Source: Deltaproteobacteria bacterium RIFCSPHIGHO2_01_FULL_43_49
GTDB lineage: Bacteria; UBA10199; SPLOWO2-01-44-7
Length of the DNA stretch: 64,000 bases
Assembly (NCBI GenBank): GCA_001798075.1
Contig: MGRG01000012.1
Coordinates: 91,852 to 155,851, forward strand
Reading direction: 5' to 3'
In this document: piece after piece, positions 3,548 to 57,573 of the stretch
Layout: the number at the start of each line of letters is the position of its first letter
Position numbering within the stretch: position 1 is the stretch's first letter
Program-made: the position numbers and the translations under genes
The notes under the pieces: model-generated
What the model was told of the DNA's origin: nothing
The model's database searches: none
Seen by the model: only the letters and a program-made list of their open reading frames with translations

Positions 3548-4705
3548 ATGAATGAAGCTGTGATTGTCGCTGCAGTACGCTCACCAATGGGAAGGGCTAA
3601 CAAAGGACAGTTTATCCACACACGCATTGATGACTTAGCAGCCGAAGTGATTCGTGCTGCACTTGCCAGAGTTCCGCAGATCAAACCGGAAATGGTTGAA
3701 GATGTTTTGATCGGTTGTGCGATGCCGGAAGGGGAGCAGGGCCTCAACGTTGCCCGCAACATCAGTTTTTTAGCCGGCATTCCTTTTGGTGCCGGCGCTG
3801 TGACGGTGAATCGTTTCTGTGCTTCCTCTTTAACAACAATCAATATGGCTGCCGATGCGGTTTTGAGTGGCGGGGCCGATATTTGTGTGACCGGCGGGAT
3901 CGAATCGATGAGTCATGTTCCGATGGGCGGGTTTAATCCAAGCCTCAATGAAAAACTTTTTGGTGATGGAAAACCGGCGGCCTACATCGGAATGGGAGAG
4001 GTCGCAGAAATTTTGGCAACAAAATATAAAATTTCTCGTGAAGAACAAGACAGATTTTCCCTCGGCTCTCATCAAAAAGCAATCAAGGCGCAAAAAGAAG
4101 GAAAATTGAAAAAAGAAATTTTGGAATGCTCTACGGTTCAAGCCGATGGTTCGATCAAAAAAGTTTTAGTCGATGAAGGTCCGAGAGAAGATACGACACT
4201 TGAAAAATTGGCACAGTTGAAGCCGGCCTTCAAGGCCAATGGTACAGTGACTGCAGGAAATTCTTCACCCCTCACCGATGGAGCGGCGTGTGTGATTGTG
4301 ATGTCGGCTGCCAAAGCAAAACAGCTTGGAATCAAACCTTTGGCGAAAATTAGGAGTTGGGCAGTGGCCGGAGTCGATCCAGCCCTCATGGGAATTGGTC
4401 CTGTGGATGCTGTGCCGAAAGCGTTAAAGAAAGCAGGGATGAAACTCTCCGATGTTGATTTGTTGGAACTCAACGAAGCTTTTGCTGTCCAGGTCTTGGC
4501 GGTATCGAGAGATTTGAATTGGGACATGACGAAACTCAATGTCCATGGGGGCGCGATTGCTTTGGGTCACCCGCTAGGGTGTAGCGGTGCTCGAATCATG
4601 GCAACCCTCCTCAATGCCTTGGAAATCTACAACAAGGCGATCGGCCTGGAGACATTGTGTGTCGGCGGCGGCCAAGGTGTGGCGACCATTGTTGAAAGAC
4701 TATAA
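3548..4705 (+). CDS. fadA: acetyl-CoA C-acyltransferase (thiolase)
   Basis: Thiolase signatures (VAAVRSPMGRANKG, NRFCASSLTTINMAADAV, C-terminal GLETLCVGGGQGVATIVE). ATG at 3548 with GGAGG 5 nt upstream; the track start at 3536 is TTG. Confidence 0.9.
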   Translation: MNEAVIVAAVRSPMGRANKGQFIHTRIDDLAAEVIRAALARVPQIKPEMVEDVLIGCAMPEGEQGLNVARNISFLAGIPFGAGAVTVNRFCASSLTTINMAADAVLSGGADICVTGGIESMSHVPMGGFNPSLNEKLFGDGKPAAYIGMGEVAEILATKYKISREEQDRFSLGSHQKAIKAQKEGKLKKEILECSTVQADGSIKKVLVDEGPREDTTLEKLAQLKPAFKANGTVTAGNSSPLTDGAACVIVMSAAKAKQLGIKPLAKIRSWAVAGVDPALMGIGPVDAVPKALKKAGMKLSDVDLLELNEAFAVQVLAVSRDLNWDMTKLNVHGGAIALGHPLGCSGARIMATLLNALEIYNKAIGLETLCVGGGQGVATIVERL

Positions 4706-6954
4706 TGTTATCGATCAAAAAAGCAGCGGTGATTGGTTCGGGAGTCATGGGGTCTGGAATTGCGGCCCATTTGGCCAACTGCGGGATTCCTTCTTATCTG
4801 TTGGATGTTGTTCCTCCCGATTTAGAAAAAATTCGGAAAGCTAGCCCAGCTCATTTATATGATGCCGATGACATTCGTCTCATCACTGTGGGACTATTGG
4901 ACCAAAATTTAGAAAAACTCAGAGAGTGCGACTGGATCATTGAGGCCGTCACCGAAAAGCTCGATGTCAAAAAAAATCTCTACAACAAAATCAAACCCTA
5001 CATTAGAGATTCTGCTTGGGTCTCTTCAAATACTTCTGGTCTTCCACTAAATGAATTAAAGTTTCGCGATAAATTCTGCATCACACATTTTTTCAATCCG
5101 CCACGCTATTTGAAGCTGATCGAAGTTGTTGGGGAAGCCAAAGAATTAGTGGAATTTATCGAAGAAAAATTGGGAAAAGGTGTTGTGAAGGCCAAAGATA
5201 CTCCTAACTTCATTGCCAATCGTATTGGTGTGTTTCATGTTTATGACTGCTTTCACATGACTTATGAAAAAAACTGGCCCCTTTCAAATGTGGAAAAAGT
5301 GATGGGACCTGCCACACTTCACCCCAAGAGTGCTGCTTTTAGAACATGTGATTTGGTGGGGTTGGATACGCTAAGCCTCGTTGCCAAGACTTGTTATGAT
5401 GGATGTAAAGAGGATGAGAACCGAAATCGCTTCAAAAACCCTGCCTTTTTGGACCAGATGATTGCCAAAGGATTGGTAGGTGCCAAAGTTGGCCAAGGTT
5501 TTTACAAAAAGGATAAAGAGACGAAGGAGATTTTGGCAATCAATTTACAAACACTAGAGTACGGCCCTCAACAAAAATTCAGAGCTGATTCTTTGGGCAA
5601 AGTTCGGGAAATGACAGAGCCTGCTGAAAAACTTCGCACCGTTGTCTTTGCTGATGATGAAGCAGGGCAGATCGCCTGGCCCTTGATGTCGAACATGCTG
5701 GTCTATGCTGCCAATCGCGTTCCAGAAATTTCAGATTCGATTGAAGATGTGGATAGAGCATTGCGCTGGGGATTTGGTTGGGAGCTCGGTCCTTTCGAAA
5801 TGTGGGATGCCTTGGGAGTTCCCCAGGTGGTAGAGCGTTTGCAAAAAGAGGGGCGTGCGGTTCCAAAATTGGTTCAAGAAATTCTAAAAAAAGGTGGAAA
5901 GTTTTATCCAAAGCCCAATCTGACCTTTTTGAAATCTCGCAAGGCTAATGGCGGTGTGGTCGAGAGCAATGCCGGCGGCTCCATTGTCGATTTAGGCGAT
6001 GGCGTTTTCTGCGCTGAGTTTCAATCCAAGATGAATGCCATCGATGGGGATGTCATAGAAACGATCAATAAAGCCCTCGCTAGGGCTGAGAAAGAGGGAT
6101 TGGGAGTAGTTATTACAAACGAGGGTGAGAATTTTTCAGTGGGTGCCAATTTGATGCTCATTTTACTCACCGCCCAACAAAAAGATTGGAAGCAACTCGA
6201 CTACATCGTTCAGGAATTTCAAAAAACGATGCAGAAAATTAGGTTTAGTCCAAAACCAGTAGTGGCGGCCCCGTTTAATTTGGTTTTAGGCGGAGGTTGT
6301 GAGGTTTGTCTCTCCGCCGCTCATATTGAGGCCCATGCTGAAACCTACATGGGTTTAGTGGAAGTCGGTGTCGGCATTCTTCCTGCCGGTGGCGGTTGTA
6401 AAAATATGATTCTGCGTTGGGAAGAAAAATTAACAAAACCCAAAAGCCCTCAAAATATGATTTGGTTTTCTCCGCTCGATGGCGGTGTTTTTCCAAAAGT
6501 GGGCAAATCTTTTGAGATGATTGCAATGGGAAAAGTTGCGACCTCCGCCAAAGAGGGAAAGAAATTTGGGCTTTTGAGAAAAAGTGATGGCGTTACTTTG
6601 AATAGAGATAATTTAACTCAGGCAGCCAAGAAAAAAGTTTTGGAACTTGCCAAAAATTATCAGCCCCCAAAAATGCGTGAAGATATTCAGCTGCCGGGCC
6701 GGGGTGGAGAAGTTGCTCTTGTCAGCGGTGCCCATGCTTTCTATTTGCGTGGCGAAATTAGTGATCACGATATGCTGATTGCCAAAACGGTTGCCCATGT
6801 TTTGGCGGGTGGCGATATGCCAACAATCCACTATACCTCCGAGCAGCATATTTTGGATTTGGAACGGGAAGCCTTCCTCAAACTCTGCGGTGAAGAAAAG
6901 ACTCAAGCCCGCATGCAGCACATGCTGATGAACGGAAAACCGCTTCGTAACTAG
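4705..6954 (+). CDS. fused 3-hydroxyacyl-CoA dehydrogenase / enoyl-CoA hydratase
   Basis: N-terminal NAD Rossmann motif AAVIGSGVMGSGIAAHLA; C-terminal crotonase-like region (VVAAPFNLVLGGGCEVCLSAAH). Start ATG overlaps the thiolase stop (TAATG), so the two are an operon. Confidence 0.9.
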   Translation: MLSIKKAAVIGSGVMGSGIAAHLANCGIPSYLLDVVPPDLEKIRKASPAHLYDADDIRLITVGLLDQNLEKLRECDWIIEAVTEKLDVKKNLYNKIKPYIRDSAWVSSNTSGLPLNELKFRDKFCITHFFNPPRYLKLIEVVGEAKELVEFIEEKLGKGVVKAKDTPNFIANRIGVFHVYDCFHMTYEKNWPLSNVEKVMGPATLHPKSAAFRTCDLVGLDTLSLVAKTCYDGCKEDENRNRFKNPAFLDQMIAKGLVGAKVGQGFYKKDKETKEILAINLQTLEYGPQQKFRADSLGKVREMTEPAEKLRTVVFADDEAGQIAWPLMSNMLVYAANRVPEISDSIEDVDRALRWGFGWELGPFEMWDALGVPQVVERLQKEGRAVPKLVQEILKKGGKFYPKPNLTFLKSRKANGGVVESNAGGSIVDLGDGVFCAEFQSKMNAIDGDVIETINKALARAEKEGLGVVITNEGENFSVGANLMLILLTAQQKDWKQLDYIVQEFQKTMQKIRFSPKPVVAAPFNLVLGGGCEVCLSAAHIEAHAETYMGLVEVGVGILPAGGGCKNMILRWEEKLTKPKSPQNMIWFSPLDGGVFPKVGKSFEMIAMGKVATSAKEGKKFGLLRKSDGVTLNRDNLTQAAKKKVLELAKNYQPPKMREDIQLPGRGGEVALVSGAHAFYLRGEISDHDMLIAKTVAHVLAGGDMPTIHYTSEQHILDLEREAFLKLCGEEKTQARMQHMLMNGKPLRN

Positions 6955-7064
6955 TTGATCTTACTTGATAATTTCCAACTAAAAAAAAATTTTAAAAAAT
7001 TTTAGCAACAAATTTAGAATTCTGCCGATAATAAGTGTAAGGGGATGAATTTTAGGAGGTTTAT

Positions 7065-7400
7065 ATGTCAGGTATTGAGTGTAAAAAAGGAACTGGTTTT
7101 CTCGATTTTGATCTGGCTAGATCTTGTAAGGAAGAGTTGGAGCAAAAACACAAGAAGCCCTTTCACATAGCAGTGTCAGAAGTAGGGATGTGGTCAAACC
7201 TTTATGTTCGAGAAGGTTTACAAGAAAATTGTGCTACAGATGCTGTCTTTAAAGATTTTATGGGTGATAACGAAGCGGCGGCAAGGGATTGTGCCAATTC
7301 GTTAATGGTTTTAGCAGGCAAACCGCATGTTACTATACGTGCTTTAGTCAATCGCATCTTTTCCGATCATTGGAAGGTCGAATTGATGAAAAAGAAATAG
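7065..7400 (+). CDS. hypothetical protein (111 aa), first small cassette
   Basis: ATG with AGGAGG RBS upstream; no recognisable domain. Confidence 0.45.
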   Translation: MSGIECKKGTGFLDFDLARSCKEELEQKHKKPFHIAVSEVGMWSNLYVREGLQENCATDAVFKDFMGDNEAAARDCANSLMVLAGKPHVTIRALVNRIFSDHWKVELMKKK

Positions 7401-7402
7401 TA

Positions 7403-7456
7403 CTAAATTGTTTTTGCGAGGCCGGCGGTTTTCTTTTGTAAAGTTTCCAAATTATT
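7403..7456 (-). pseudogene. 3' remnant of a paralog of the 115-aa gene at 9026-9373 (encodes ..NNLETLQKKTAGLAKTI*)
   Basis: Reverse-complement translation matches the C-terminus of the 9026-9373 product (LETIQKKTTQLAKSV*). Immediately follows the stop of the 7065-7400 cassette. Confidence 0.6.
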
Positions 7457-7514
7457 CAATTCTTAATAAAAAATAGAACTTTAAGAATTCAAATATCTCT
7501 GTTATGATCAATCC

Positions 7515-7826
7515 GTGGCCATAGATAAGATTCGGAACTGCCTCGGCAATTTAAAATTCACGAGCCACGCCAAAAATGGGATGTTAAAGGAAGAGTTAGG
7601 CGAAATTACCGAATCTGATATTCGAGAAGCGTTAGTTCAAGGGGAAGTGATTGAGAGTTATATGGAGGATCAACCTTATCCAAGTTTTTTAGTCTATGGA
7701 GAGACAAGCCAGAAGAGACCGTTGCATGTTGTTTGCGCTCCGATTGTTGAGGAGACTACATTAGTTATTATAACTGTTTATGAACCTGATCCGACCAAAT
7801 GGATCAAGTTTCGAAGGAGGATTTGA
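7515..7826 (+). CDS. DUF4258-family protein (toxin-like component of a two-gene module)
   Basis: EVIESYMEDQPYPSFLVYGETSQKRPLHVVCAPIVEETTLVIITVYEPDPTKW matches the DUF4258 pattern as I recall it. GTG start (uncertain). Confidence 0.7.
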   Translation: MAIDKIRNCLGNLKFTSHAKNGMLKEELGEITESDIREALVQGEVIESYMEDQPYPSFLVYGETSQKRPLHVVCAPIVEETTLVIITVYEPDPTKWIKFRRRI

Positions 7827-8053
7827 TGAAATGTGTTTTTTGTAAAGGATCTTTGGTTAAGAAGATGGTGGAAGAGGAAGTTAAAGCGGGCAATGATCAT
7901 ATTTTAGCTGAGGTGGAAGCAGAAGTTTGCGTCAACTGTCATGAACGTTATTTTCCACAAGGAACCATTGACTATCTTCAAAAGCTTAAAAAAGAGCTGA
8001 AGAATAAAAAGGAACAGTTCAAACCGGTGGGGCAAGTTTTTCGAGCAGCCTGA
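7826..8053 (+). CDS. YgiT-type zinc-finger protein (MqsA-like antitoxin-type partner)
   Basis: MKCVFCKG...EVCVNCHERYF has two CxxC pairs. ATG overlaps the DUF4258 stop (TGATG), with AGGAGG upstream. Confidence 0.65.
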   Translation: MKCVFCKGSLVKKMVEEEVKAGNDHILAEVEAEVCVNCHERYFPQGTIDYLQKLKKELKNKKEQFKPVGQVFRAA

Positions 8054-8079
8054 AATAAAACCACTTCGCAGATAAGAAA

Positions 8080-8166
8080 TTAAACAGTTTTTGCGAGGCC
8101 GGTAGTTTTTTTCTGAAGCGTTTCCAACCGAGACAAATAAGAATCCAACTGGCCGATTTGCCTTTG
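8080..8166 (-). pseudogene. 3' remnant of a paralog of the 115-aa gene (encodes ..RQIGQLDSYLSRLETLQKKTTGLAKTV*)
   Basis: Reverse-complement translation aligns with the C-terminus of the 9026-9373 product (QKIGRLDSYLSRLETIQKKTTQLAKSV*). Follows the stop of the zinc-finger gene. Confidence 0.65.
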
Positions 8167-8192
8167 AGGAACTGATTGCGTTTGTCCAATGG

Positions 8193-8438
8193 ATGGATTA
8201 TGCTGATGGTGTGAAAAAGATGACTAAGAAAGAGGGCAAAGCTTATTTGAAAAGATGGAGAGAGGTGCGTTCTATTTTGGCCAAAGAATGGCAGAGGCCA
8301 TCGTTGGCAGAAAGGTTTAAAGAATTTCTATTTTTACTCGACAATTGGTCTTTCTTTTCCTCCTATGAAAAGGGCGTAAAACGCGGCAATATTTCAAATA
8401 ACTGGGCACGGTTGAGAAGACGAGTTCAACATGGCTAA
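8193..8438 (+). CDS. hypothetical protein (81 aa), upstream partner of nucleotidyltransferase-fold gene
   Basis: ATG start; 8-nt overlap with the next gene; no recognised domain. Confidence 0.4.
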   Translation: MDYADGVKKMTKKEGKAYLKRWREVRSILAKEWQRPSLAERFKEFLFLLDNWSFFSSYEKGVKRGNISNNWARLRRRVQHG

Positions 8439-9018
8439 GGTGCAAAGCCTTTCAAAACCATTTCAAATTGCCTTAAAAGATCTATTTACTTGGTTTCATT
8501 CTTCCAAAGTTCGTGGATTAGTTATTGGAGGGGTAGCGTTGGCTTTTTTGGGGCGTCCCCGTTTGACGAAGGATATTGACGCGTTGGTGATGGTGAATTT
8601 GGATGATGTGGAAAGTTTTTTGAAATCAGGGCGACATTATAGCTTTGTTCCGCGTATCTCGGACCCTATTGCTTTTGCAAAGAAAAATCGGGTGCTACTT
8701 TTGAAACATACAAGAACAAAACTACCAATAGACATTTCTTTAGGAGCGCTTTCGTTTGAAGAAGAAAGTTTTCAACGAAGTAAAAAATTTTATGAGGGAA
8801 ATTTATCTATTCGATTTCCGACAACGGAAGACTTGATTATCATGAAAGCGGTTGCCCATCGCCCCCAGGATTTGGCAGATGTTGAAACACTTTTGTTGGT
8901 AAATCCCAGGGTGGATCTGAGACGTATTCGCAAGTGGGTTAAGGAGTTTGCAAAAGTTCTCGAGATGCCCGAGTTACTTCAAGATTTAGAAAGACTTTTG
9001 AAGGAGACAAAGAAATAA
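8431..9018 (+). CDS. nucleotidyltransferase-fold protein (pol-beta superfamily, AbiEii/MNT-like)
   Basis: LVIGGVALAFLGRPRLTKDIDALV resembles the GG...D.D nucleotidyltransferase motif; C-terminal IMKAVAHRPQDLADVETLL. Confidence 0.5.
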   Translation: MAKVQSLSKPFQIALKDLFTWFHSSKVRGLVIGGVALAFLGRPRLTKDIDALVMVNLDDVESFLKSGRHYSFVPRISDPIAFAKKNRVLLLKHTRTKLPIDISLGALSFEEESFQRSKKFYEGNLSIRFPTTEDLIIMKAVAHRPQDLADVETLLLVNPRVDLRRIRKWVKEFAKVLEMPELLQDLERLLKETKK

Positions 9019-9025
9019 TCCTCTT

Positions 9026-9373
9026 TCAAACGCTCTTTGCTAATTGTGTAGTTTTCTTCTGTATTGTTTCCAGCCGAGACAAATAAGAATCTAACCTGCC
9101 AATTTTCTGGTTGAGTGTTCTGGCTTTCAAATGCCATTTTTTGCCATCGACTGCTTTTAGTTTGGTAACCAATTCACTTTTAGCTTTTGTTGTGCGCTCT
9201 TTTTCTTTTTTCAGTTTGGCCTCACGCTCTTTGAGAAAACTTTTGGCAAACTCTTTGAAAGCAGCTTTGAAAGCTTTTTCACCCTCGGACGAAGTTCTTT
9301 TAAGCTTTTTCTTTTTAAACTCTGGGTTCTTTTTTAAAAACTGACCCCAAGTAAACTTGTGTGCTAACGACAT
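9026..9373 (-). CDS. lysine-rich coiled-coil hypothetical protein (115 aa); its 3' end is the repeated unit of the cassette array
   Basis: Intact ORF with ATG; highly charged K/E-rich sequence; its last 25 codons recur as remnants at 8080-8166 and 7403-7456. Confidence 0.5.
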   Translation of the reverse strand: MSLAHKFTWGQFLKKNPEFKKKKLKRTSSEGEKAFKAAFKEFAKSFLKEREAKLKKEKERTTKAKSELVTKLKAVDGKKWHLKARTLNQKIGRLDSYLSRLETIQKKTTQLAKSV

Positions 9374-29513: not shown

Positions 29514-29544
29514 ATACCGCACGGTACCAGGTACCTGGCGGTAT
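29514..29544. repeat. REP-like palindrome (ATACCGCACGGTACCAGGTACCTGGCGGTAT)
   Basis: Near-perfect 31-bp palindrome abutting the RAYT stop codon. Confidence 0.8.
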
Positions 29545-30206
29545 TAGAGAACCACTTTTATTCGATTTGCAAGCCCATTTACTTGGTTCACCATCGCCGA
29601 AACCCGGCGTGATGTTGTCGCCTTAGATTCTTCCAAGAGGTTATGAGTTTTATCGGAAGGCAGCGGCGTCATAACAAGTTCTCTGTAAACTCTTTTACGT
29701 TTTTCATCATCGTTCACTAGGCCAAGGTAAGAAGGATGAAATTCTAATAATTCGTTTGGTGTGCCAAATGCATAGTAGGTATAACCACTCCATAACCAAT
29801 CTTCTGGTCTGATTACAAGTCCAGCAGATAGGGAGTTTCTATGCTGATAACGTAAACAAGCTAACGCATAGCGATCATTAGGAATGATATTGCTTCGATA
29901 TCGATGGGCCCAAAAGTGCCCGATTCTGTTATGCCGCTGATTAAAATCTTTAGCATATTTTAAACAAAGTTCCTGCATGATTTGGTCGATAAAATATCCC
30001 GTATGGGTGGAGAGGAGGAGATGGATATGCGAATGAAGCAGTTCATAATTATAAAGCCTGAATGCAAACTTCTCTTTAACCGCAGCTAACATTTCCAAGA
30101 ATATTTTGAAGTCTTCTTCTGTCTGAAGCAAATGCTCTTTGTTATTACATCGCAAAATGGTGTGATAATGAATGTCATCACCTTTGATTCGTGGCGCTCT
30201 AGGCAT
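29544..30206 (-). CDS. REP-associated tyrosine transposase (IS200/IS605 Y1 HUH family)
   Basis: HUH motif HSHIHLLL, conserved Tyr region (HFWAHRYRS), typical ~220-aa size. Confidence 0.85.
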   Translation of the reverse strand: MPRAPRIKGDDIHYHTILRCNNKEHLLQTEEDFKIFLEMLAAVKEKFAFRLYNYELLHSHIHLLLSTHTGYFIDQIMQELCLKYAKDFNQRHNRIGHFWAHRYRSNIIPNDRYALACLRYQHRNSLSAGLVIRPEDWLWSGYTYYAFGTPNELLEFHPSYLGLVNDDEKRKRVYRELVMTPLPSDKTHNLLEESKATTSRRVSAMVNQVNGLANRIKVVL

Positions 30207-31234: not shown

Positions 31235-31335
31235 TCACTTCAAATCTTTAATCTTTAGCTGAATGGTTTTGATGTTGAGGTAGGTGTTCCATTGAGGGAC
31301 AAAGGCGATGTTGCCGCTACTTAGTGTTTACCGCC
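31235..31335 (-). pseudogene. duplicated 3' remnant of recJ (encodes ..GNIAFVPQWNTYLNIKTIQLKIKDLK*)
   Basis: Reverse-complement translation matches the true RecJ C-terminus (GGNVAFVPQWNTYQNQKTIQLKIKDLKRI*); about 80% nucleotide identity to 34118-34205 by eye. Confidence 0.7.
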
Positions 31336-31456
31336 AGATACCTAGTGGTACAGTGCACCAGATCCTGAATAGACACGTAGTGTCAACGCAATCGCCTGAG
31401 ATCGAATAGTTAATTATAACTTGACAGTATTTGAGGCCAAAATAGACTTGTGCTGT

Positions 31457-31849
31457 GTGAAAATTCTATTCGTTTGCGAATACAACGCTTGTCGGAGTCA
31501 GATAGCTGAGGGGCTGGCCCGTGCGCTCCTTCCGGAAAATTTTTCAATAACGAGTGCCGGTATTTATCCTGGTGAGTTGAATTGGGTCACCATTGAAGTA
31601 ATGAAGGAGATCGGGATCGACATCTCAACCCAGAGGTCCAAGTTGCTTGCAGAAGTATTGGACAGGCGTTTTGATCAAGTAATTGTCCTGGCAGAAGCGG
31701 CATGGAGGGCGGTCGAGATGTTAAAAACCGACCACAAATTGCTTTGGCCCTTTCCTGATCCAGCATGCGATCCCGGCGATGCCGAAGCGGTGAAAGGACG
31801 AATCCGCAGAGTTCGAGATCAGTTGAGAGAGAGGATTTTAACCCTATGA
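31457..31849 (+). CDS. low-molecular-weight phosphotyrosine phosphatase / arsenate reductase family protein
   Basis: CX5R P-loop VCEYNACRSQ near the N-terminus. Start taken at GTG 31457 (track start is TTG 31421). Stop overlaps the otsA start (ATGA). Confidence 0.7.
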   Translation: MKILFVCEYNACRSQIAEGLARALLPENFSITSAGIYPGELNWVTIEVMKEIGIDISTQRSKLLAEVLDRRFDQVIVLAEAAWRAVEMLKTDHKLLWPFPDPACDPGDAEAVKGRIRRVRDQLRERILTL

Positions 31850-34104
31850 AGTTTTCCCGTTTTGGGATTTTAGTCATCGGTTCTTTGCTGGTTGTTGTTG
31901 TCGGCATCTCTTTTATCCATTTTCAGCGAGAGCAGACCGCTCTTCGCGATGACCTCAACCGACGCGCCCGTGTGATCTCAAAAAGCCTCGCGCCGCCTGC
32001 AATCCGTATCTTGAAGAATCCCCCCGCCATTGACGAAGAAGACGTTGCGGAGCGGTTGGAGGGGCAGGGTCGTACTATCGGACTCATGATTTGCAACCTT
32101 GAGGGAAAACCGATCGCATTGTCGTCGACACTGACTGACACAGTAACCTGCAACGATGAGGTCATGGCCACGTTGGAAAGCGGAAAGGAATCTATTTTAC
32201 TGGATGAAATAGGGGGTCAGTCGCTCCACCGCCTGATTTTGCCATTGAAAGATCGCACCGGTTCTCTTCTTGGCACCCTTACCATCGTTCACGATTCCTC
32301 ATACATTACCAAACGGGTCACGTCCGCAGTCACCTGGATGACCCTCAGCCTCGCCATTTTGGCGATTGTCATTGCTCTTGGAACCTATCTTGCCTCTCGT
32401 CGCTCATTCCAAAGGTCGGTCACTCAGCTCCTCGACTGGATGAAATCATCGAAGAGTGCGGAAGACCTCCCTCCACCCACCGAATCTCTTTTGAGACCTG
32501 TCTCCAGGGAGGTTGAAAAGCTGACCGCGCGGCTACGGGCGGCCAAAGAGACAGCCAAAGAGGTTTCGGAGGCAAATCGTGTGAGTAATCTTTGGACTGG
32601 GGCACGACTCAAGGGTCACGCTACGTTTTCTATCGGAAATAAATCGCTGATCGTTGTTTCCAACCGGGAACCATACATGCATGTCAAGAAGGAGGGAAAA
32701 CAGCGAGTCATCATCCCTGCCAGCGGTCTTGTAACAGCCCTCGATCCCGTCCTTCGGGCGACGAGCGGTATCTGGATTGCCCACGGGTCAGGAGAAGAGG
32801 ACCGCGACTTTGTGAATAGTGAGGACAAGATTCTGGTACCGCCAGAGTCTCCGCTTTATACGCTTCGCCGGATCTGGCTCACGCGAGAAGAAGAAGAGCG
32901 ATACTATTATGGCTTCTCCAACGAGGCAGTCTGGCCCCTCTGCCATCTCACCCATCACCGTCCACATTTTGAGGAGAAGGACTGGCAGTCTTACATAAAG
33001 GTGAATGAGAAATTTGCCGACGCTGTCCTCCAAGAATGTGGCAAAGACCAACCGTTTGTCCTAGTTCAGGATTATCATTTTACCCTGCTCCCAAAGTTGA
33101 TTCGCGAGAGGCGGCCGGATGCCGTGGTTGGCCTTTTCTGGCACATTCCCTGGCCTACGCCTGAATCGTTTCAAATCTGTCCCTGGAAACGAGAGATATT
33201 GGAAGGGATGCTGGGAGCAAATTTTGTAGGTTTTCATCTGCAATCGTACTGCAACAACTTCCTGGACACTGTAAACAGCCTTCTCCCTGTGCGAATTGAT
33301 TGGGATCGACCTGGCATCCTTCACAATGAAGGCTTAACAACGGTCAAACCGTTTCCCATTGGCGTCCAGTTGTGGTCGGAGCGAGGAGTCGCTTCAGATG
33401 AGAGATTTCGGGAAAAAGCAAATATGTGGCGGAAGGAGTTGGAGTTAAATGCCAAGCGTCTGATCGTGAGCGTTGATCGGCTCGATTACACCAAGGGGAT
33501 TCCAGAGAGGATTGGTGCCATTGATCGGTTTTTGGAAAAGTATCCAGCCCATCGGGGAAAAGTTGTCTTTGTTCAACTTGCGGCCCCCAGCCGGGTTCAC
33601 ATCCCCCGTTACAGAGAATTTGTGACAGAGGTGGAGGGGCTTGTGGAACAAATCAATTGGAGACATGGGACAGAAGACTGGAAACCGATTCTTTTTCTCA
33701 AATCGCATCATGACCCCGAAACAGTTTATACCTTTCTGCGGATGGCCGATGTTTGCATCATTAGCTCTCTTTCAGACGGCATGAATCTTGTCGCCAAGGA
33801 ATTTGTCGCGGCGCGAGAAAAGGGAGATGGAGTGTTGATCCTTTCGGAATTTACCGGGGCCGCTCGGGAGTTTCAAGACGCGTTGCAGATCAATCCCTAT
33901 GCCCGTGCCGACTTTGCCGAGGTCATCAGGGTGGCCATTGAGATGCCGATGGAAGAGCAAAAAAAACGGATGAGCCGGATGAAAGCACAGGTCATAGAGC
34001 ACAATGTCTACGGATGGGCCGCGAATCTTATCACGGAAATGACTCAAACTGTAGAAGTCGGCATTTCATCCCGTCAAGATTTTCAAACAAGCAAGTACCT
34101 TTAA
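31846..34104 (+). CDS. otsA: trehalose-6-phosphate synthase (GT20) with ~265-aa N-terminal membrane-anchored extension
   Basis: GT20 catalytic region from about 32640 (LIVVSNREPY, FWHIPWPTPE, ANFVGFHLQSY); two predicted TM helices upstream (FGILVIGSLLVVVVGISFIHF; VTWMTLSLAILAIVIALGTYLA). Confidence 0.85.
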   Translation: MKFSRFGILVIGSLLVVVVGISFIHFQREQTALRDDLNRRARVISKSLAPPAIRILKNPPAIDEEDVAERLEGQGRTIGLMICNLEGKPIALSSTLTDTVTCNDEVMATLESGKESILLDEIGGQSLHRLILPLKDRTGSLLGTLTIVHDSSYITKRVTSAVTWMTLSLAILAIVIALGTYLASRRSFQRSVTQLLDWMKSSKSAEDLPPPTESLLRPVSREVEKLTARLRAAKETAKEVSEANRVSNLWTGARLKGHATFSIGNKSLIVVSNREPYMHVKKEGKQRVIIPASGLVTALDPVLRATSGIWIAHGSGEEDRDFVNSEDKILVPPESPLYTLRRIWLTREEEERYYYGFSNEAVWPLCHLTHHRPHFEEKDWQSYIKVNEKFADAVLQECGKDQPFVLVQDYHFTLLPKLIRERRPDAVVGLFWHIPWPTPESFQICPWKREILEGMLGANFVGFHLQSYCNNFLDTVNSLLPVRIDWDRPGILHNEGLTTVKPFPIGVQLWSERGVASDERFREKANMWRKELELNAKRLIVSVDRLDYTKGIPERIGAIDRFLEKYPAHRGKVVFVQLAAPSRVHIPRYREFVTEVEGLVEQINWRHGTEDWKPILFLKSHHDPETVYTFLRMADVCIISSLSDGMNLVAKEFVAAREKGDGVLILSEFTGAAREFQDALQINPYARADFAEVIRVAIEMPMEEQKKRMSRMKAQVIEHNVYGWAANLITEMTQTVEVGISSRQDFQTSKYL

Positions 34105-35807
34105 ATTCTTTTGAGGTCTTTTATCTTTAATTGGATTGTTTTTTGATTTTGGTAGGTGTTCCATTGGGGGACAAAGGCGACATTGCCCCCCTTAAGTGTC
34201 AACGGATGGTTGTTGCTCATATTAAACCCGATTGCTTCCAATGTGGTTTCCAAATCGGTCACTTTGAATTTCAAATGTTTTTCGCCCACGACACGCAAGT
34301 CATTAAATTTTAGATCGTTGCAGGCAAAAACCGGTTCTGGATTTTTGATTCCAAAAGGTTTGAGAGACCCCAATTCTTCAAGAAACTTTGCTTGAATGTC
34401 ATTTAATTTTAATTCGCAATCGATATTCAAGAAAGGCTTAAATGGTTCTTCCAAGACTTTTTGTTGGAGTGCCTTTTCGAAACGTTCTTCAAATTGGCTT
34501 AAATTTGTTAGCGAAACCGTAAGGCCGGCCGCTTGTTTGTGCCCACCAAATTGCTCTAGCAAATCGGAACAGGCCTCTAAAATTTCAACAATGTGTACTC
34601 CGGGAATGCTTCTTGCCGAACCTCTCGCAAAATCTTTTTCGATCGCCAAAGCAATAGAGGGGCGGTAATAATTTTCTGCGAGTTTGGAAGCGACCAATCC
34701 GACGATGCCCGGATGCCAATCTTTTGAAGAAACAACAAAACCGTTTTTTGCTAATTTATCTTCCGCCTGTCTAAAAGCTTCTCTCACATGTTTTTCCTGC
34801 ATCGCCTGTCTTTCTTGATTGCATTGGTCTAAAATCTTAGCAAGCTTACTAGCCCTTTCTAAATCGGCAGCACAAAGCAGATCCAAGCCCAGAGAGGCTT
34901 TGGCGATCCGACCACCGGCATTGATGCGGGGTGCTAATCGAAATCCAATATCGGATGGCTCCATGGTTTTACCGCCATCTAACTTACAGACTTCTTTCAG
35001 CGCGATGATGCCCATTTTTTTTGTGACTGCTAACTCTTTGAGCCCATAAGTCACCAAAATCCGGTTGATGCCGGTCAAGGGCGCTAAATCACCGACGGTT
35101 CCCAGTGCCACAAGATCTAAATGTTGCCTTAAGTTTGGCTCCCCATTTTTGAAGAGACCCTCCTCCCGCATTTTTTGACGTAGGGCTATGAGCAACATAA
35201 AAACAACACCGACACCGGCAAGCTCTCTGCCAGGTGTTCCTTCTTTCAACATCTGCGGATTGATGAAAGCAAAAGCAGGAGATTTCCTCGAATCCAATTC
35301 GTGATGATCGGTAACAATCACATCCAACCCATTTTTTTTAGCCCATTGAAGTGCATCCTGCGACTTTGTGCCGCAGTCGGCTGTAATAATGAGCGAAATC
35401 TTTTTGGCTTTCAGCTCCTCCAAGGCTTTGATATTGATTCCATAACCTTCTTGAATTCGGTCAGGGATATAAACAGTGAGGGGCAAGCTCAACTCAGTAA
35501 AAAATGTTTGAAGAAGTGCGGAAGAAGTAAGTCCATCGACATCATAGTCTCCATAAACAGCAATCGATTCTCGATTTTGGATGGCTTGAATCAAACGCCG
35601 GACAGCTTTTTCCATATCTGGAAAAAGAAAGGGGTTGGGCAAATCTTTTAAAGAAGGCTTCAAAAAAGCTTGTACCTTTTCTGGTTCGTCAATGCCACGA
35701 TTAATAAGGATTTGCGCAGTAACCCAAGAGATTCCCAGCGCTTCAGCTAAACGCTTCTGGAGTGATGGGTTAGGGGACGAAATCCTCCAGGTTTTTTGCA
35801 GGGGCAT
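34101..35807 (-). CDS. recJ: single-stranded-DNA-specific exonuclease RecJ
   Basis: DHH-family motifs (VYGDYDVDGLTS, DHHE) and RecJ-like overall sequence. Confidence 0.9.
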   Translation of the reverse strand: MPLQKTWRISSPNPSLQKRLAEALGISWVTAQILINRGIDEPEKVQAFLKPSLKDLPNPFLFPDMEKAVRRLIQAIQNRESIAVYGDYDVDGLTSSALLQTFFTELSLPLTVYIPDRIQEGYGINIKALEELKAKKISLIITADCGTKSQDALQWAKKNGLDVIVTDHHELDSRKSPAFAFINPQMLKEGTPGRELAGVGVVFMLLIALRQKMREEGLFKNGEPNLRQHLDLVALGTVGDLAPLTGINRILVTYGLKELAVTKKMGIIALKEVCKLDGGKTMEPSDIGFRLAPRINAGGRIAKASLGLDLLCAADLERASKLAKILDQCNQERQAMQEKHVREAFRQAEDKLAKNGFVVSSKDWHPGIVGLVASKLAENYYRPSIALAIEKDFARGSARSIPGVHIVEILEACSDLLEQFGGHKQAAGLTVSLTNLSQFEERFEKALQQKVLEEPFKPFLNIDCELKLNDIQAKFLEELGSLKPFGIKNPEPVFACNDLKFNDLRVVGEKHLKFKVTDLETTLEAIGFNMSNNHPLTLKGGNVAFVPQWNTYQNQKTIQLKIKDLKRI

Positions 35808-46415: not shown

Positions 46416-46445
46416 GAAGCAACTTTTTTGAGGATTTGCCGAAAA
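46416..46445 (+). promoter_or_regulatory. conserved 30-bp box copy 2 (GAAGCAACTTTTTTGAGGATTTGCCGAAAA), candidate promoter of the four-gene operon
   Basis: 27 of 30 identical to 42306-42335; ends about 20 nt before the operon start codon, followed by RBS AGGAGAGG. Confidence 0.35.
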
Positions 46446-46465
46446 CAATTAGGAGAGGTTTTTTA

Positions 46466-48046
46466 ATGGCTGAGAAGTGTCAATTAATTAGTAAATTATC
46501 AGTGTCACCCTCCATACTGCTCGGTAGTTTTCTTTATGATATCAGCAAGTTAGGTGGAAATCCTGGGGAGCTAGACACCTGTGACCTAAAGGTTTTCCAA
46601 AAGGAATTGGGTATTTCTTTGCCCCAAAAAGCATTTCTCGACAAATTTGGAAAAGGGGATTCGTTTAAACTCATTGAAGCCTCTGAATTTCTTTATAATC
46701 AGTATTTATATGCCCCCAACAATAAATATTATGCGTTTTACCCCAAATATTTCAGCAATCAGACCCATGCGGATCTCGCAGAAGTGGCTCTTCGTGACCT
46801 AAAAACGACCCTGGAACCTATCGTCGAAGTAGGAGTCCTCAAAAAAATTCCTATCTACGAGCGCATCTTGAAAGAACCGGCCCTGGCAGAATGGCTTTCT
46901 GTTGATGAAAAAGAAAAAATTGGAGCAGACATTGCAAAAATTCGTGAACTTTTTGAAGAAAAGAACTGGAAAGACCTCTACCCCCGCATGGACACTTTTG
47001 AAGTATCTCTCCCTGATTTGTACGAGACGATTAGCCAACGAGCTCAGGATAACGTTAAATTTTGGGAAAGGGCTGTTGTTGCAACGGAAGTTGTTCACAA
47101 TGTGTTATTTATCGGGGCCGGTGTTGCAGTGGGAATCGTTGCTGGCCCTGTGGCAGCTGTTGGTGCGACACTGGCATTCGGTTTATCTTCCCTCGCCTCC
47201 GAAGAAACTGCCAAAGCTATTTCACAAGATGACTATACATGGCAAAATGCTTTGAAATCTTTTGGCTATCACGCACCGTTTGATATTATCAAAAGTGCCG
47301 CTTTCCTATTTCCGCCACTCAAGGCTGCAACCATCTTTGTGGGAGCCACTTTTGTGGAAGTTGCGGCAGACCCATTTGGAGAACCGAAACCTGTTGTTGA
47401 CCGTTTGATTGATGGAGGTTTTTCAGCTCTGGTTGCAGCGGCCACTTTTTTCGTTGGGAAAAAAGCCGGCGAAAAACTGGGGCCTTATTTTGCAAAATAT
47501 TTTAGAAGAGCCATCCAGCCAGTTCCGGAGTCACCTCAACTTGTCAGACCAACAGTTGTTGAAACTCGAACGGCTACTTCTCCCTCGCCACCTGTTGAAC
47601 CGCCTCCTCCAAAAATGGAAGTGGAGCCTGCACCGCCACCCCCCACCCCCAAACCAAAAAGGGTCGAAGCCAGACCCAAAAATGGTGGCCCTAATGGAGC
47701 ATCGCATTCAGAGAAGGTCTTGCACACCATCAAGAAAACACGATTTGCAGAAGATTGTTTTGAAAAGCTCACACCGTTGGTTAAAGGAAAAATGGAGGAG
47801 TTTGTTGCAACACTCGTTAATAAATTAAATTTCGGAGTTCCTATTGCAAAAATTGCTAATGTCATGCGGAACAAGGATTTCGCCGGTGTTTGGGAAGGAC
47901 GTTTCATGTCTGCTAGCAATGCGAGAGTCTATTTTAAAATCACCGATGATCCCAATGGTTCCAAAATAGTTGAGATTCTCGGTTATTCTTTAGGAGAAGC
48001 CGATCGCATTGCTATTTTACAGCATTTTGCTGGTGGGAGGCATTAA
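46466..48046 (+). CDS. operon gene 1: membrane-type protein with Gly/Ala-rich hydrophobic segments, Pro-rich linker and RelE/ParE-like C-terminal domain
   Basis: ATG 46466 with AGGAGAGG RBS; hydrophobic segments (VLFIGAGVAVGIVAGPVAAVGATLAFGL; FSALVAAATFFVG); linker SPSPPVEPPPPKMEVEPAPPPPTPKPK; C-terminus AGVWEGRFMSASNARVYFKITDDPNGSKIVEILGYS resembles the RelE/ParE toxin pattern. Confidence 0.6.
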   Translation: MAEKCQLISKLSVSPSILLGSFLYDISKLGGNPGELDTCDLKVFQKELGISLPQKAFLDKFGKGDSFKLIEASEFLYNQYLYAPNNKYYAFYPKYFSNQTHADLAEVALRDLKTTLEPIVEVGVLKKIPIYERILKEPALAEWLSVDEKEKIGADIAKIRELFEEKNWKDLYPRMDTFEVSLPDLYETISQRAQDNVKFWERAVVATEVVHNVLFIGAGVAVGIVAGPVAAVGATLAFGLSSLASEETAKAISQDDYTWQNALKSFGYHAPFDIIKSAAFLFPPLKAATIFVGATFVEVAADPFGEPKPVVDRLIDGGFSALVAAATFFVGKKAGEKLGPYFAKYFRRAIQPVPESPQLVRPTVVETRTATSPSPPVEPPPPKMEVEPAPPPPTPKPKRVEARPKNGGPNGASHSEKVLHTIKKTRFAEDCFEKLTPLVKGKMEEFVATLVNKLNFGVPIAKIANVMRNKDFAGVWEGRFMSASNARVYFKITDDPNGSKIVEILGYSLGEADRIAILQHFAGGRH

Positions 48047-50418
48047 TGACCACTATTAATTTTGGCTTTATTGAAGCAGCCATCACTGCAGCCCAGGCAG
48101 CCCAAGCGGCTTCTAATAGGGCTGAATTAGATGCCGCATTGGAAAAATTGGGGAGGGCGATCCATCCCCTGGATACCTTTGCTGATGGCAATCTATCCCC
48201 CTTGGTGGAAAGGCTGACGAGTGGTAGAAGAGCTGTCACTGAAGCAGAACTGAATCAAGTTATCAGGACTATCAACGATGCCGGGGATAAATACCGGGCA
48301 AGTTCAGGCACAAAGGAATCAAAAGCCAGCAGTGCGCACACAGGGCACGGTGTTCATGGAAGCCCCAATCCTTATCTTATTCAAGTAGGTCAGTCTAAAA
48401 CTTTTTCCCCGCGCCCTAACCAAGCCTACATCGCACGGAAAGCAGTGAGCCATTTTAGAGAAGAACACAGAGGTTTTTTTCGCCTCGATACAGGTGAGGG
48501 TAAAACACCAACATACGGATTCATCATTCAAGAACTTCGCAAAGAACTTCCCGATGAATACCAAGAGGCACTTGTTGTCATGGGTTGCCATCAAGCAGAA
48601 CCCGCTCGCAAATTGGCAGAGACGATGAAACATATGTTTCGTGATGAAAAAATCATGTTTTTAGAGGGAGGTATTGAAGCAGAAGATTTTAAAAGAGTTA
48701 CTTTTGTGGTGGGGACCTATCAACAACTAGCACAAAAATCGAGTATTGACGTTTTGAAAGAATGGGCTGGTCAAAAAAGAATTCTTTTTGTCTTGGATGA
48801 AGCGGACATGGTTGTTTTCAAAGGTATTGCAGAAGATGAACATCGAATGGCTACTTGGATTCGTCTCTTGATCGACTTTGGAGTCTTTACACAACATGGG
48901 CATTATCTTGCCAGAACACGGCATCGACTGTTGGGGGCCTCTGCAACCCTTGATCGCCCTGATGAAATTTCTCTCTCAACTGTTTGGGGTCCTGGAAATG
49001 TTTTCTATCATACACCGATGGCAGAGGGGGTTCGGCGCGGCACTCTTGTGCCCGTGGTTGGTCATGTCTTAGAAATGGATGTTCCAGAAAAAGAAAAACA
49101 TCTCTTCAGGGATTTTACGAAGATTGTGGATGGTAAGATTGTGGTTGATAAAACAAAAGTGATGTCTGCCTGCGGCAGTGATCATGCTGTTAAAACATCG
49201 GTTCGAGCTGTGATCGATCATATGAAGATGAAGATTGGTGCTGGAACGACAAAGGGTGAAGCAGTGCGGCGTGGGATCGGTTATGCCATGGACACCACTG
49301 CCTTGGAAAAACACATGCGCTGGCAGCAAGAATTATTTGGGTTGGTAGAGGTTATTTTCCAAATTTATCAAGGCTTGGCTGCATCAAAACCAATGCATGT
49401 TGATACAATCCTCGCTCATCTTGGTGGTCTGGAGAAACTAGATGCGTTTGGTCAAACTTTAAAACGGTTTCTCTATGCTAGAGAATGGAAAACGGTGGAA
49501 TCCCTTTACAGAAAGGCGGTCAGTTCTTTAAAAAATGGGAGAAAAGAAGGTATTTCGGAATTGTTCACTACTCTCTATTCTATTTTGAATGTTGATGTTC
49601 GCAGAATCAAAGGAAGACCTTTGGTGGCCACGGCTGTCTGGCAAAGTATGGACATGGATCGTGAAGGCAAAAAAATTCCTCGTGAGGCTCGTCGCACTCA
49701 ATATCTCAACAAATTTGGTGATCGGGAACTAACGATGAAGGGCTTCAATGCTGGGGTGATCGACATGCTCTGGAGCATTGGGATGTTGGACAGAGGTTTC
49801 GACGAACCGATGGCAAGCTTAATTGTTGATAATGCCCCTAGTTCATCGAGAAGAGAAGTGGTGCAAAGGGCAGGCCGTATCATGCGACCACCCGACCCCA
49901 AAAATCCTAAAGATCATAGTCAAAAACCAGAATCTATTTATATTACACTGACACCCAATTTGGAAGCCCACCATCTCGATGTGGCCAGAAAAGATTTAGC
50001 CCGAGTTTTTGGTACCGAAGTAGATCCTGAGCTCAATATCATTAAGATTCGCCCTACCAAAGAAGGGGATTTTGAGTGGCGTACTCCCGATCCTGTTCAA
50101 CTTGATTTGGGAGGTGATAAAAAAGTCCATTTAGTGTTGGTTGGGGCTAGAACCGTGGAGGCATTGGTTCATTTTTTAAAAGGACGTTATGGGAAAGATT
50201 ATGATCCCGAAATTTTGGCCTTCGATGCCGGTGTTGGGGTTGAAGAAGTTGATGATTTATTGCGGGCCATTCGTTTTCCCAAGGAATCCAGATTACGTGC
50301 CTTTTTAAAAAATTGGCGTGCCGATGATGCAACAATCCACCAAATCATGGCAATCTATCACTCCGATCTTGCCGACATGAAAACGGTCTATGGTAACGCC
50401 TGGAGGATTGTGCAATGA
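48046..50418 (+). CDS. operon gene 2: SF2 helicase / ResIII-type ATPase
   Basis: Motif I LDTGEGKT (about 48490), motif II LDEADM (about 48796), motif III SAT (about 48934), motif VI QRAGRIMRP (about 49861). Start overlaps the gene 1 stop by 1 nt. Confidence 0.75.
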   Translation: MTTINFGFIEAAITAAQAAQAASNRAELDAALEKLGRAIHPLDTFADGNLSPLVERLTSGRRAVTEAELNQVIRTINDAGDKYRASSGTKESKASSAHTGHGVHGSPNPYLIQVGQSKTFSPRPNQAYIARKAVSHFREEHRGFFRLDTGEGKTPTYGFIIQELRKELPDEYQEALVVMGCHQAEPARKLAETMKHMFRDEKIMFLEGGIEAEDFKRVTFVVGTYQQLAQKSSIDVLKEWAGQKRILFVLDEADMVVFKGIAEDEHRMATWIRLLIDFGVFTQHGHYLARTRHRLLGASATLDRPDEISLSTVWGPGNVFYHTPMAEGVRRGTLVPVVGHVLEMDVPEKEKHLFRDFTKIVDGKIVVDKTKVMSACGSDHAVKTSVRAVIDHMKMKIGAGTTKGEAVRRGIGYAMDTTALEKHMRWQQELFGLVEVIFQIYQGLAASKPMHVDTILAHLGGLEKLDAFGQTLKRFLYAREWKTVESLYRKAVSSLKNGRKEGISELFTTLYSILNVDVRRIKGRPLVATAVWQSMDMDREGKKIPREARRTQYLNKFGDRELTMKGFNAGVIDMLWSIGMLDRGFDEPMASLIVDNAPSSSRREVVQRAGRIMRPPDPKNPKDHSQKPESIYITLTPNLEAHHLDVARKDLARVFGTEVDPELNIIKIRPTKEGDFEWRTPDPVQLDLGGDKKVHLVLVGARTVEALVHFLKGRYGKDYDPEILAFDAGVGVEEVDDLLRAIRFPKESRLRAFLKNWRADDATIHQIMAIYHSDLADMKTVYGNAWRIVQ

Positions 50419-57145: not shown

Positions 57146-57573
57146 GCCTTTTCCCTTTTGGCGAGGTAGTCCAACACAGATTTGGCAAAGAGTTCGAAGT
57201 CGCTTAGATGTTGCTTAAGAACGCTATAAATTTCTTTGTCATCCGTTTCCCAATAAAGATGCACCAAGCGGTTTCTCATTTTTGCCATTTTTCGCAATTT
57301 TGTGAGAAAGCCCTCGGTGACCACTCCATTTTCCACGAGTACTTTAAAGCTGTCGGCATAGTCCTTTGGCGCTCTAAAGCCAAATCTGGAGATGAGATGG
57401 TTTGTCAAATCAAGACATGTCTCTAAAGCATATTGGAGATTGAGGCGAGCGCTGTCTTTTTTCATCGCATCTTTTAGGAAATCAGCCTCAGAAAATGCGC
57501 CGAGTTCTTTCAACTTTAAAACATATTGACGAAGCCGATCTACGAGCATTGTTACTTTTTTTATATCAACCAT
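57142..57573 (-). CDS. hepT: HepT-like (DUF86) toxin
   Basis: Rx4HxY motif (RNRLVHLY) near the C-terminus; overlaps the upstream MNT gene by 8 nt. Confidence 0.8.
   Translation of the reverse strand: MVDIKKVTMLVDRLRQYVLKLKELGAFSEADFLKDAMKKDSARLNLQYALETCLDLTNHLISRFGFRAPKDYADSFKVLVENGVVTEGFLTKLRKMAKMRNRLVHLYWETDDKEIYSVLKQHLSDFELFAKSVLDYLAKREKA

Follow-up and report, generated by a model that had tools for sequence, protein, structure and literature searches.

In staphylococci, composite SCC/SCCmec elements (staphylococcal cassette chromosome) accumulate at the 3' end of rlmH (orfX) as tandem cassettes, some of them without ccr, and their repeat holds the last codons of the target. Neisseria 'minimal mobile elements' place different small cassettes between the same conserved genes, carry no mobility genes, and spread by transformation and recombination in the flanks. 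Prophage e14 of Escherichia coli K-12 lies in icd, as does phage 21; it supplies a substitute 3' end with mostly synonymous or conservative changes, and the displaced end persists as the fossil icdC (PMC13626634, citing Hill et al. 1989). Cis-mobilizable elements (CIMEs) without recombinases form tandem accretion arrays in streptococci at the 3' ends of fda, rpsI, rpmG, and rplL (PMC7563491), and in the tycheposon islands of Prochlorococcus repeated integration pushes older elements outward and leaves partial tRNAs between cargo (10.1101/2020.12.28.424599). Here, we analyze an array of small cassettes beside g115, a gene of 115 amino acids (aa), in a stretch of 64,000 nucleotides (nt) from Deltaproteobacteria bacterium RIFCSPHIGHO2_01_FULL_43_49 (contig MGRG01000012.1, positions 91,852 to 155,851; hereafter the window), an uncultured groundwater bacterium known as a metagenome-assembled genome (MAG). 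The cassettes are separated by displaced copies of the g115 3' end, which we call fossils, and the same footprint recurs at a second gene of this genome, recJ, and at the corresponding junction of a second genome with different cargo.

Three direct copies of the g115 3' end

An original prediction made from the sequence alone had described three direct copies of the g115 3' end, each placed right after a small module. Alignment and a tblastn search of the g115 C-terminus, which reads …IGRLDSYLSRLETIQKKTTQLAKSV up to the stop, against the whole window confirmed them: besides the live end, the search recovered fossil 2 (E=1.5e-10) and fossil 1 (E=5.6e-4), and all three copies are co-linear and in the same orientation (Table 1). 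Fossil 2 shares 77% identity with the live end over 78 nt, and fossil 1 is identical to fossil 2 at 35/45 nt and to live g115 at 28/45. One 26-nt block, GTTTCCARCCGAGACAAATAAGAATC, is found solely in live g115 and fossil 2, with 0.00 matches expected, while the 15-mer TTTTTGCGAGGCCGG is exact in both fossils. Each copy does directly follow a module, with the stop of a 111-aa open reading frame (ORF) 2 nt from fossil 1, that of a zinc-finger gene 26 nt from fossil 2, and that of a nucleotidyltransferase gene 7 nt from the live g115 stop.

The differences among the copies are of a coding type. Live g115 and fossil 2 differ at 6, 4, and 10 sites in the first, second, and third codon positions (9 synonymous and 5 non-synonymous codons), and fossils 2 and 1 differ at 3, 0, and 7 (7 synonymous, 2 non-synonymous), leaving the second position unchanged. 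Because these differences are mainly synonymous or at third positions, the copies diverged while they were functional genes. Both fossils moreover encode Gly where the g115 of the window has Gln (…T[T/A]GLAKT…), and this Gly allele (…TTGLAKSI) is living in one of 44 homologues (P0003, locus L050). Over the last 43 nt, fossil 2 matches L050 at 34 positions and the live gene of the window matches it at 25. Coding-type divergence and resemblance to the Gly-type L050 allele together argue that the fossils originated in different g115 lineages that were functional, rather than through decay of locally duplicated copies.

A mosaic joint and a fossil of the neighboring gene

Compared with live g115, fossil 2 is a mosaic. 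Its block at 8120-8145 matches at 25/26 nt, the preceding 12 nt at 8/12, and the following 45 nt at 31/45, so that the flanks of the block are ~68% identical; written codon by codon, the pattern of differences is xx.xx......x.xx.x..xxx.xx.x. The block has the form GATTCTTATTTGTCTCGG[C/T]TGGAAAC, and orthologues reach at most 19-23/36 identity in the segment that contains it. The homology of fossil 1 begins exactly at the 8-nt motif TTGGAAAC, which is the right-hand edge of the same block. As a possible identical core shared by live and displaced ends, fossil 1 thus offers these 8 nt only, compared with the 25/26 block of fossil 2 and a 33/36 block at recJ (see below). The alignments support the idea that the near-identical 26-nt block would mark a recombination joint.

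Adjoining fossil 2 we found a fossil of a further gene end, that of the convergent fadB-like neighbor. It matches the fadB end of the window at 11/12 nt and the fadB ends of the related loci L002 and L003 at 9/9 (p ~0.01-0.04 against shuffles), and its stop overlaps the stop of the g115 fossil, as stops do in empty junctions. Because fossil 2 retains ~29 nt of the fadB end, the repeated unit appears to be a copy of the whole convergent g115/fadB junction and not of the g115 end alone. The original prediction, which had taken the repeat for a 3' remnant of g115, was right that the g115 end is present, and its unit has to be widened to include the fadB end at fossil 2. No significant fadB-end fossil was detected beside fossil 1 or the live copy. 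A fourth TTTCCA at 6972, near the fadB stop, was considered as a possible, very degraded fossil and is not significant. Pairwise local alignments of the 110 nt that flank each copy toward its cassette revealed no shared element-borne arm sequence beyond the g115 homology; a similar AAAGAAATA just outside copies 1 and 3 was dropped, as it is explained by the lysine-rich C-terminal tails typical of the nucleotidyltransferase family.

The junction in related genomes

The gene order around g115 is conserved as panK, rhodanese, and g115, followed by convergent fadB and thiolase. The convergent stops of fadB and g115 lie 2.07 kb apart in the window. In at least six relatives the junction is empty, with the two stops abutting or overlapping: they overlap in L004, L005, L020, and L050 and lie 6 nt apart in L002, the gene calls abut on the P0005 contig, and L052 has a 50-nt gap. 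Five relatives carry other cargo at this point (L003, L044, L017/L043, L049, and L051; Table 1). Because the junction is empty in some relatives and differently filled in others, it is evidently an insertion point. The original prediction had proposed comparing orthologous loci; this comparison returned empty sites and different cargo, not a fixed arrangement.

The most informative relative is L051, whose g115 is 78% identical to that of the window and whose array runs from g115 through a convergent FGE-sulfatase gene, a degraded g115-end fossil, and a fadB-end fossil to a DUF6036 nucleotidyltransferase cassette. The fadB-end fossil there spans 55 nt, is identical at 43 of them (p<0.001 against shuffles), and adjoins the g115-end fossil. 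With a junction fossil of its own and a different nucleotidyltransferase cassette, the L051 array appears to be independent of the window array. L051 is the exception in this respect and lies outside the 40 related loci obtained from genome and metagenome scans, in which no fossils were found.

Insertions in this neighborhood are not confined to one side of g115. L049 carries a different DUF6036 nucleotidyltransferase pair at 449-1118, upstream of g115 and between it and the rhodanese gene, and L051 encodes downstream of g115 (2749-2898) a C-terminus near-identical to that of the L049 nucleotidyltransferase, so the same cassette type occurs on different sides of g115 in two relatives. In L002, too, rhodanese and g115 are separated by additional genes, and in L005 an insert separates panK from rhodanese.

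The exact g115 sequence is present on 24 contigs, with essentially identical neighbors in all of them, and the same array recurs in independent assemblies (a Joint Genome Institute contig of 136 kb; L047 and L048 at 99.5% identity). Because several independent assemblies contain it, the array is not an assembly artefact.

The same footprint at recJ

Although the footprint had been described for g115 only, comparison of all ORF C-termini, and subsequently of all complete ORFs, with the window revealed it at recJ as well (Table 1). A recJ 3'-end fossil (tblastn E=2e-10) is separated from the live recJ end by 2.8 kb of cargo that contains no recombinase gene. The two ends share a 33/36 identity block, after which identity falls to ~70%, with 9 synonymous and 2 non-synonymous codon changes. 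The scan of all ORFs uncovered no further gene in the window with such a fossil.

Cassettes between the copies

The 111-aa ORF is a near-orphan, with three matches among 1.84 billion representatives, two of them weak, and no tblastn match in any related locus. Cassette A encodes a DUF4258 protein (Pfam 8e-20), whose nearest match is from the same strain, and a protein with a YgiT finger (TIGR03831, 8e-6). It is preceded by a promoter-like site, TTAAGA-16-TATGAT, which together with a putative operator spans 7458-7508. An inverted repeat, AATTCTTAA-N14-TTAAGAATT, at 7458-7489 overlaps the -35 element of this site and is a plausible antitoxin operator. Cassette C encodes a nucleotidyltransferase (Pfam DUF6036 2.9e-9, AbiEii 1.2e-5) and, with its 81-aa partner, forms a putative type IV/VII-like toxin-antitoxin pair; the closest non-self homologue of the nucleotidyltransferase (72%) is found at an unrelated locus of a related MAG whose g115 site is empty. 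By family and overlapping gene layout, two of the three modules appear to be toxin-antitoxin pairs of type II/IV. The cassettes are almost wholly coding, with spacers of 2-60 nt and no pseudogene debris.

Table 1. Features of the g115/fadB junction and of the recJ locus in the window, and cargo at the same junction in relatives
Feature	Position	Strand	Remarks
Live copy of the repeated unit (g115 last 27 codons and stop)	9026..9106	-	Holds the 26-nt identity block at 9066-9091
Fossil 2 of the g115 3' end (26-27 codons and stop)	8080..8160	-	Translation QIGQLDSYLSRLETLQKKTTGLAKTV, stop
Fossil 1 of the g115 3' end (last 15 codons and stop)	7403..7450	-	Translation LETLQKKTAGLAKTI, stop
Fossil of the fadB 3' end (~29 nt), adjoining fossil 2	8054..8083	+	AAAACCACTTCG (KPLR), 8-nt insertion, AGAAATTAA (RN, stop)
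recJ, second target gene	34101..35807	-	Pfam DHH/DHHA1/RecJ_OB; live 3' end overlaps cargo stop by 4 nt
Fossil of the recJ 3' end	31238..31327	-	Translation TLSSGNIAFVPQWNTYLNIKTIQLKIKDLK, stop
recJ cargo: ArsC/low-molecular-weight (LMW) phosphatase-like gene (31421-31849) and 779-aa OtsA-like trehalose-phosphate synthase gene (31765-34104)	31421..34104	+	Convergent with recJ
111-aa near-orphan ORF	7065..7400	+	Promoter-like site at 6991-7020
Cassette A: DUF4258 toxin-like gene (7515-7826) and YgiT/MqsA-type zinc-finger antitoxin-like gene (7799-8053)	7515..8053	+	Pfam, TIGR03831
Cassette C: 81-aa ORF (8193-8438) overlapping 195-aa DUF6036/AbiEii-type nucleotidyltransferase gene (8431-9018)	8193..9018	+	Convergent with g115
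g115, intact target gene, 115 aa	9026..9373	-	Lineage-restricted conserved family
fadB-like 3-hydroxyacyl-CoA dehydrogenase/enoyl-CoA hydratase gene	4705..6954	+	Convergent neighbor; adjoins g115 in empty sites
Junction cargo in L003			635-aa ORF
Junction cargo in L044			ORF of ~70 aa
Junction cargo in L017 and L043			AAA_14/DUF4143 ATPase
Junction cargo in L049			Convergent gene without assigned function
Junction cargo in L051			FGE-sulfatase and further cassette

Searches for a catalyst and a core motif

We compared ~45 window ORFs of at least 120 aa with Pfam. Neither these ORFs nor the inserts of relatives contain a tyrosine or serine recombinase (Phage_integrase, Resolvase, Recombinase), a DDE transposase, or a reverse transcriptase, which agrees with the original prediction that the window holds no integrase. 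Signature proteins of integrative and conjugative or integrative and mobilizable elements (ICEs or IMEs) were likewise absent from the junction in the window and in L002-L005, L017, L043, L044, and L049-L052. The sole mobility-type gene in the window scans is a Y1 transposase-like ORF at 29544-30206 (minus strand; 220 aa), a homologue of REP-associated (repetitive extragenic palindrome)/IS200-like Y1 transposases (Pfam Y1_Tnp 3.8e-14; NCBIfam REP_Tyr_transpos). It lies ~1 kb beyond the recJ fossil, and no link to the fossils was found.

Hairpins of the attC or IS200 type were rejected, as all three copies fold no better than shuffles on both strands (DNA z-scores +0.1 to +1.3). The repeats have no Rfam match, and both identity blocks lack an exact match in viral contigs. 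The motif TTTGTC-N4-7-TGGAA, which was defined post hoc, occurs in the window solely in two g115 and two recJ copies (0.47 expected); since neither the g115 orthologues nor the L051 array contain it, it is not a general requirement. The length of the identity blocks, 26-36 nt, is compatible both with a site-specific core and with the shortest homology that RecA needs.

Proposed mechanism and alternatives

Serial insertion with end replacement appears well supported by the comparisons above. As to how it came about, we hold with moderate confidence to serial Campbell-type integration with 3'-end replacement at the junction, because the divergence is of the coding type, the fossils resemble a second living lineage, and both identity blocks and junction fossils are present. 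Precedents for this mode are e14 in icd with its icdC fossil (PMC13626634), the tandem build-up of integrase-less CIMEs (PMC7563491), and the growth of tycheposon islands (10.1101/2020.12.28.424599). The 2.07 kb between the stops, a small variable islet, would have been built by successive recombination at the junction of two gene ends, in at least two and probably three events. Each incoming unit would be a short self-contained module joined to a diverged copy of the junction, comprising the final 15-30 g115 codons and, at least once, the terminal codons of fadB as well. A single crossover between this carried copy and the resident junction would insert the module, endow g115 with a new functional 3' end, and leave the former end stranded as a fossil beyond the module. 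The newest module, the 81-aa ORF with the nucleotidyltransferase, would be the one next to g115, and older modules would have been shifted toward fadB; the evidence supports the view that the live 3' end beside this newest cassette is a replacement. Since an integrated replacement end would be a working gene end under coding constraint, the copies would differ mainly synonymously. Because the modules encode no recombinase, integration would depend on a recombinase supplied in trans, in the manner of cis-mobilizable elements, or on homologous recombination by the host that starts at the 26-36-nt blocks; we infer both the catalyst and a circular intermediate. Toxin-antitoxin addiction plausibly accounts for the persistence of the modules.

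Several observations weigh against this account, and most of all against the term 'site-specific' in the original prediction of successive site-specific integrations with end replacement. The insertion point, the replacement live end, and the recombination joint bear that prediction out, while 'site-specific' is unproven: the fossils are of unequal length (45-51 nt, at least 81 nt, and ~90 nt at recJ), neither the window nor the inserts of relatives encode a recombinase, most occupied sites in relatives are fossil-less (none was found at L003, L044, or L043), and the L049 cassette sits on the other side of g115. The pairing of three copies with three modules is also less neat than it had seemed; the copies are real, but three of them correspond to two integrations, no fossil belonging to the 111-aa ORF flanks it toward fadB, and fossil 1 adjoins that ORF where the simplest order of events predicts fadB. 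The phylogeny of the live g115 end (…QLAKSV) agrees with that of the remaining gene, which would require that the donor was a close relative or that the crossover took place upstream of g115. No excised variant or circular form was seen among the 24 contigs with the exact g115, and the locus of the 72% nucleotidyltransferase homologue contains no fossil of its neighbors. The identity-block statistics, finally, are post hoc and by our own estimate amount to p of roughly 0.004-0.02 per locus.

The main rival explanation invokes linear DNA from related strains, taken in by homology-facilitated illegitimate recombination or by exchange of the minimal-mobile-element type. A homologous crossover upstream, in panK, rhodanese, or the g115 body, would import the donor g115 with its downstream cassette, and the other end would join illegitimately inside the resident g115; the fossils would then be the undeleted rest of the old gene, with neither duplication nor a dedicated enzyme needed. 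We consider this unlikely, although it sits well with several of the difficulties just listed, namely the missing recombinase, the variable fossil lengths, and the congruence of the live end with the gene body. It also suits a neighborhood that is a hotspot with insertions at several positions (L049, L002, L005), and it lets N cassettes go with N gene-end copies without special pleading for the 111-aa ORF. What it does not predict are the 25/26 (g115) and 33/36 (recJ) blocks inside fossils of ~68-70% identity. It would further call for illegitimate joining on two or three separate occasions, every time no more than 30-60 nt from a cassette promoter and without donor downstream DNA, and the fadB-end fossil at fossil 2 and the L051 junction fossil would require donor cassettes that already lay inside duplicated junctions. 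Slightly less probable again is decay, in which each module is the last remnant of a larger integrase-bearing island or prophage at the g115 3' end, that is, a classical CIME. By definition CIMEs arise when ICEs or IMEs decay but retain their att sites, and gene 3' ends often harbor them (PMC7563491); att-like fossils are present here, and toxin-antitoxin pairs, which are the most difficult genes to lose, make up two of the three modules. The compact, debris-free coding layout of the cassettes speaks against decay, as does the precise deletion that would be needed three times here and again at recJ, where the cargo is metabolic and not of the toxin-antitoxin kind; an integrase-bearing element sits at the junction in 0 of ~20 related loci examined.

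Two further explanations are far weaker. A local tandem duplication of g115 or the junction, or long target-site duplications, followed by decay and by gene conversion or allele replacement of the live copy, could produce same-orientation repeats, and gene conversion between adjacent repeats could have created a short identity block. We regard it as very improbable: the changes are synonymous-biased and unlike neutral decay, those between fossils 1 and 2 are also of the coding type, the fossils match the L050 lineage better than the resident gene does, and relatives have a single g115 adjoining fadB. An integron-like array (a CALIN, or cluster of attC sites lacking integron-integrases), or the template and variable repeats of a diversity-generating retroelement, would account for small co-oriented cassettes with a repeat after each; toxin-antitoxin cassettes are typical of chromosomal integrons, and retroelement variable repeats are located at gene 3' ends. 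The unfolded repeats, the Rfam result, and the empty sites effectively refute it. There is moreover no IntI or reverse transcriptase, the mismatches are of all types and synonymous-biased and not adenine-specific, and the repeats are the coding ends of g115, which empty-site relatives also have.

A bolder reading would make the modules an undescribed class of recombinase-less minimal cassettes (0.5-3 kb), each with replacement 3' ends of convergent host genes and inserted in trans by a chromosomal recombinase, perhaps through a core such as TTTGTC-N4-5-TGGAA. We think this improbable; if true, the class would be an integron-like system that targets coding 3' ends rather than attI/attC. If the modules move as such, the locus would illustrate the route by which toxin-antitoxin genes and other small cargo reach precise chromosomal sites in uncultured bacteria of groundwater, and fossil gene ends would provide a cheap, annotation-free marker of insertion history in MAGs. 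Should the modules be products of decay or by-products of recombination, the locus would still be a clean record of serial acquisition, with the order of events readable from the fossils.

The target gene and other features of the window

The 44 g115 homologues are nearly all 115 aa long, and the family has no match in Pfam or NCBIfam. AlphaFold2 predicts g115 to fold as a helical hairpin (helices 29-73 and 80-114; predicted local distance difference test score, pLDDT, 86.7), and a search of the model against PDB returned generic coiled-coil hairpin matches only. In L021 (434-658) and L035 (754-978) we observed a short, 74-aa g115 variant in which the N-terminus is conserved and a lysine-rich tail replaces the second helix; this variant adjoins the stop of fadB in both loci. 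The rhodanese of the window is a stand-alone protein of 125 aa, and a 435-aa ORF of L003 (892-2199) fuses rhodanese to an N-terminal multi-pass membrane domain of ~300 aa.

Elsewhere in the window, a HepT/MNT toxin-antitoxin pair (HEPN ribonuclease and nucleotidyltransferase; 57142-58015, minus strand) is flanked by a 1807-aa ORF and an aminotransferase gene. The stops of the pair overlap these neighbors, and the site has no fossil gene ends. The 1807-aa ORF belongs to a co-directional block on the plus strand (46436-57145) with a 536-aa ORF, a 790-aa ResIII/DEAD helicase, and a 436-aa ORF; three of the four have no Pfam match, and the block could be a defence island.

Comparison with known systems

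SCC/SCCmec repeats of ~15-20 bp are near-identical, and the cassettes, which are many kb in size, are moved by Ccr serine recombinases, unlike the arrangement described here. Neisseria minimal mobile elements leave no duplicated fossil ends of the flanking genes. Their alternative cassettes between conserved flanks and their want of mobility genes recur at the g115/fadB junction, where the fossil ends are an extra. With tycheposons the locus shares cargo arrays separated by partial copies of the target; those islands have tRNA targets, tyrosine recombinases, and replication genes, whereas the targets here are protein-coding 3' ends and no recombinase was found.

The likeness to CIMEs is closer, in that the modules here are bounded by repeats of the target 3' end, lack recombination and transfer genes, and stand in tandem beside the target. 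CIMEs occur in tandem arrangement with their cognate ICE or IME, of which they are seen as decay products (PMC7563491), whereas no such partner is present in the window or in ~20 related loci. At 45 to >100 nt and 62-78% identity, the repeats of this locus are long and diverged, in contrast to the short, near-identical att repeats of CIMEs, and the modules are smaller than classical CIMEs (1.2-13 kb).

The arrangement of e14 in icd is similar in having an insert between the live and displaced copies of the 3' end of a protein-coding gene and a site that is empty in relatives. By contrast, e14 measures 15 kb, carries its own integrase, and leaves one fossil, whereas the inserts here are of 0.45-2.8 kb, recombinase-less, and stacked, and one fossil includes the end of the convergent neighbor. 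Integration at a 3' end with replacement of that end is thus known for integrase-bearing prophages and islands, and what is new is its minimal recombinase-less form, composed for the most part of toxin-antitoxin pairs, at two genes and in two genomes.

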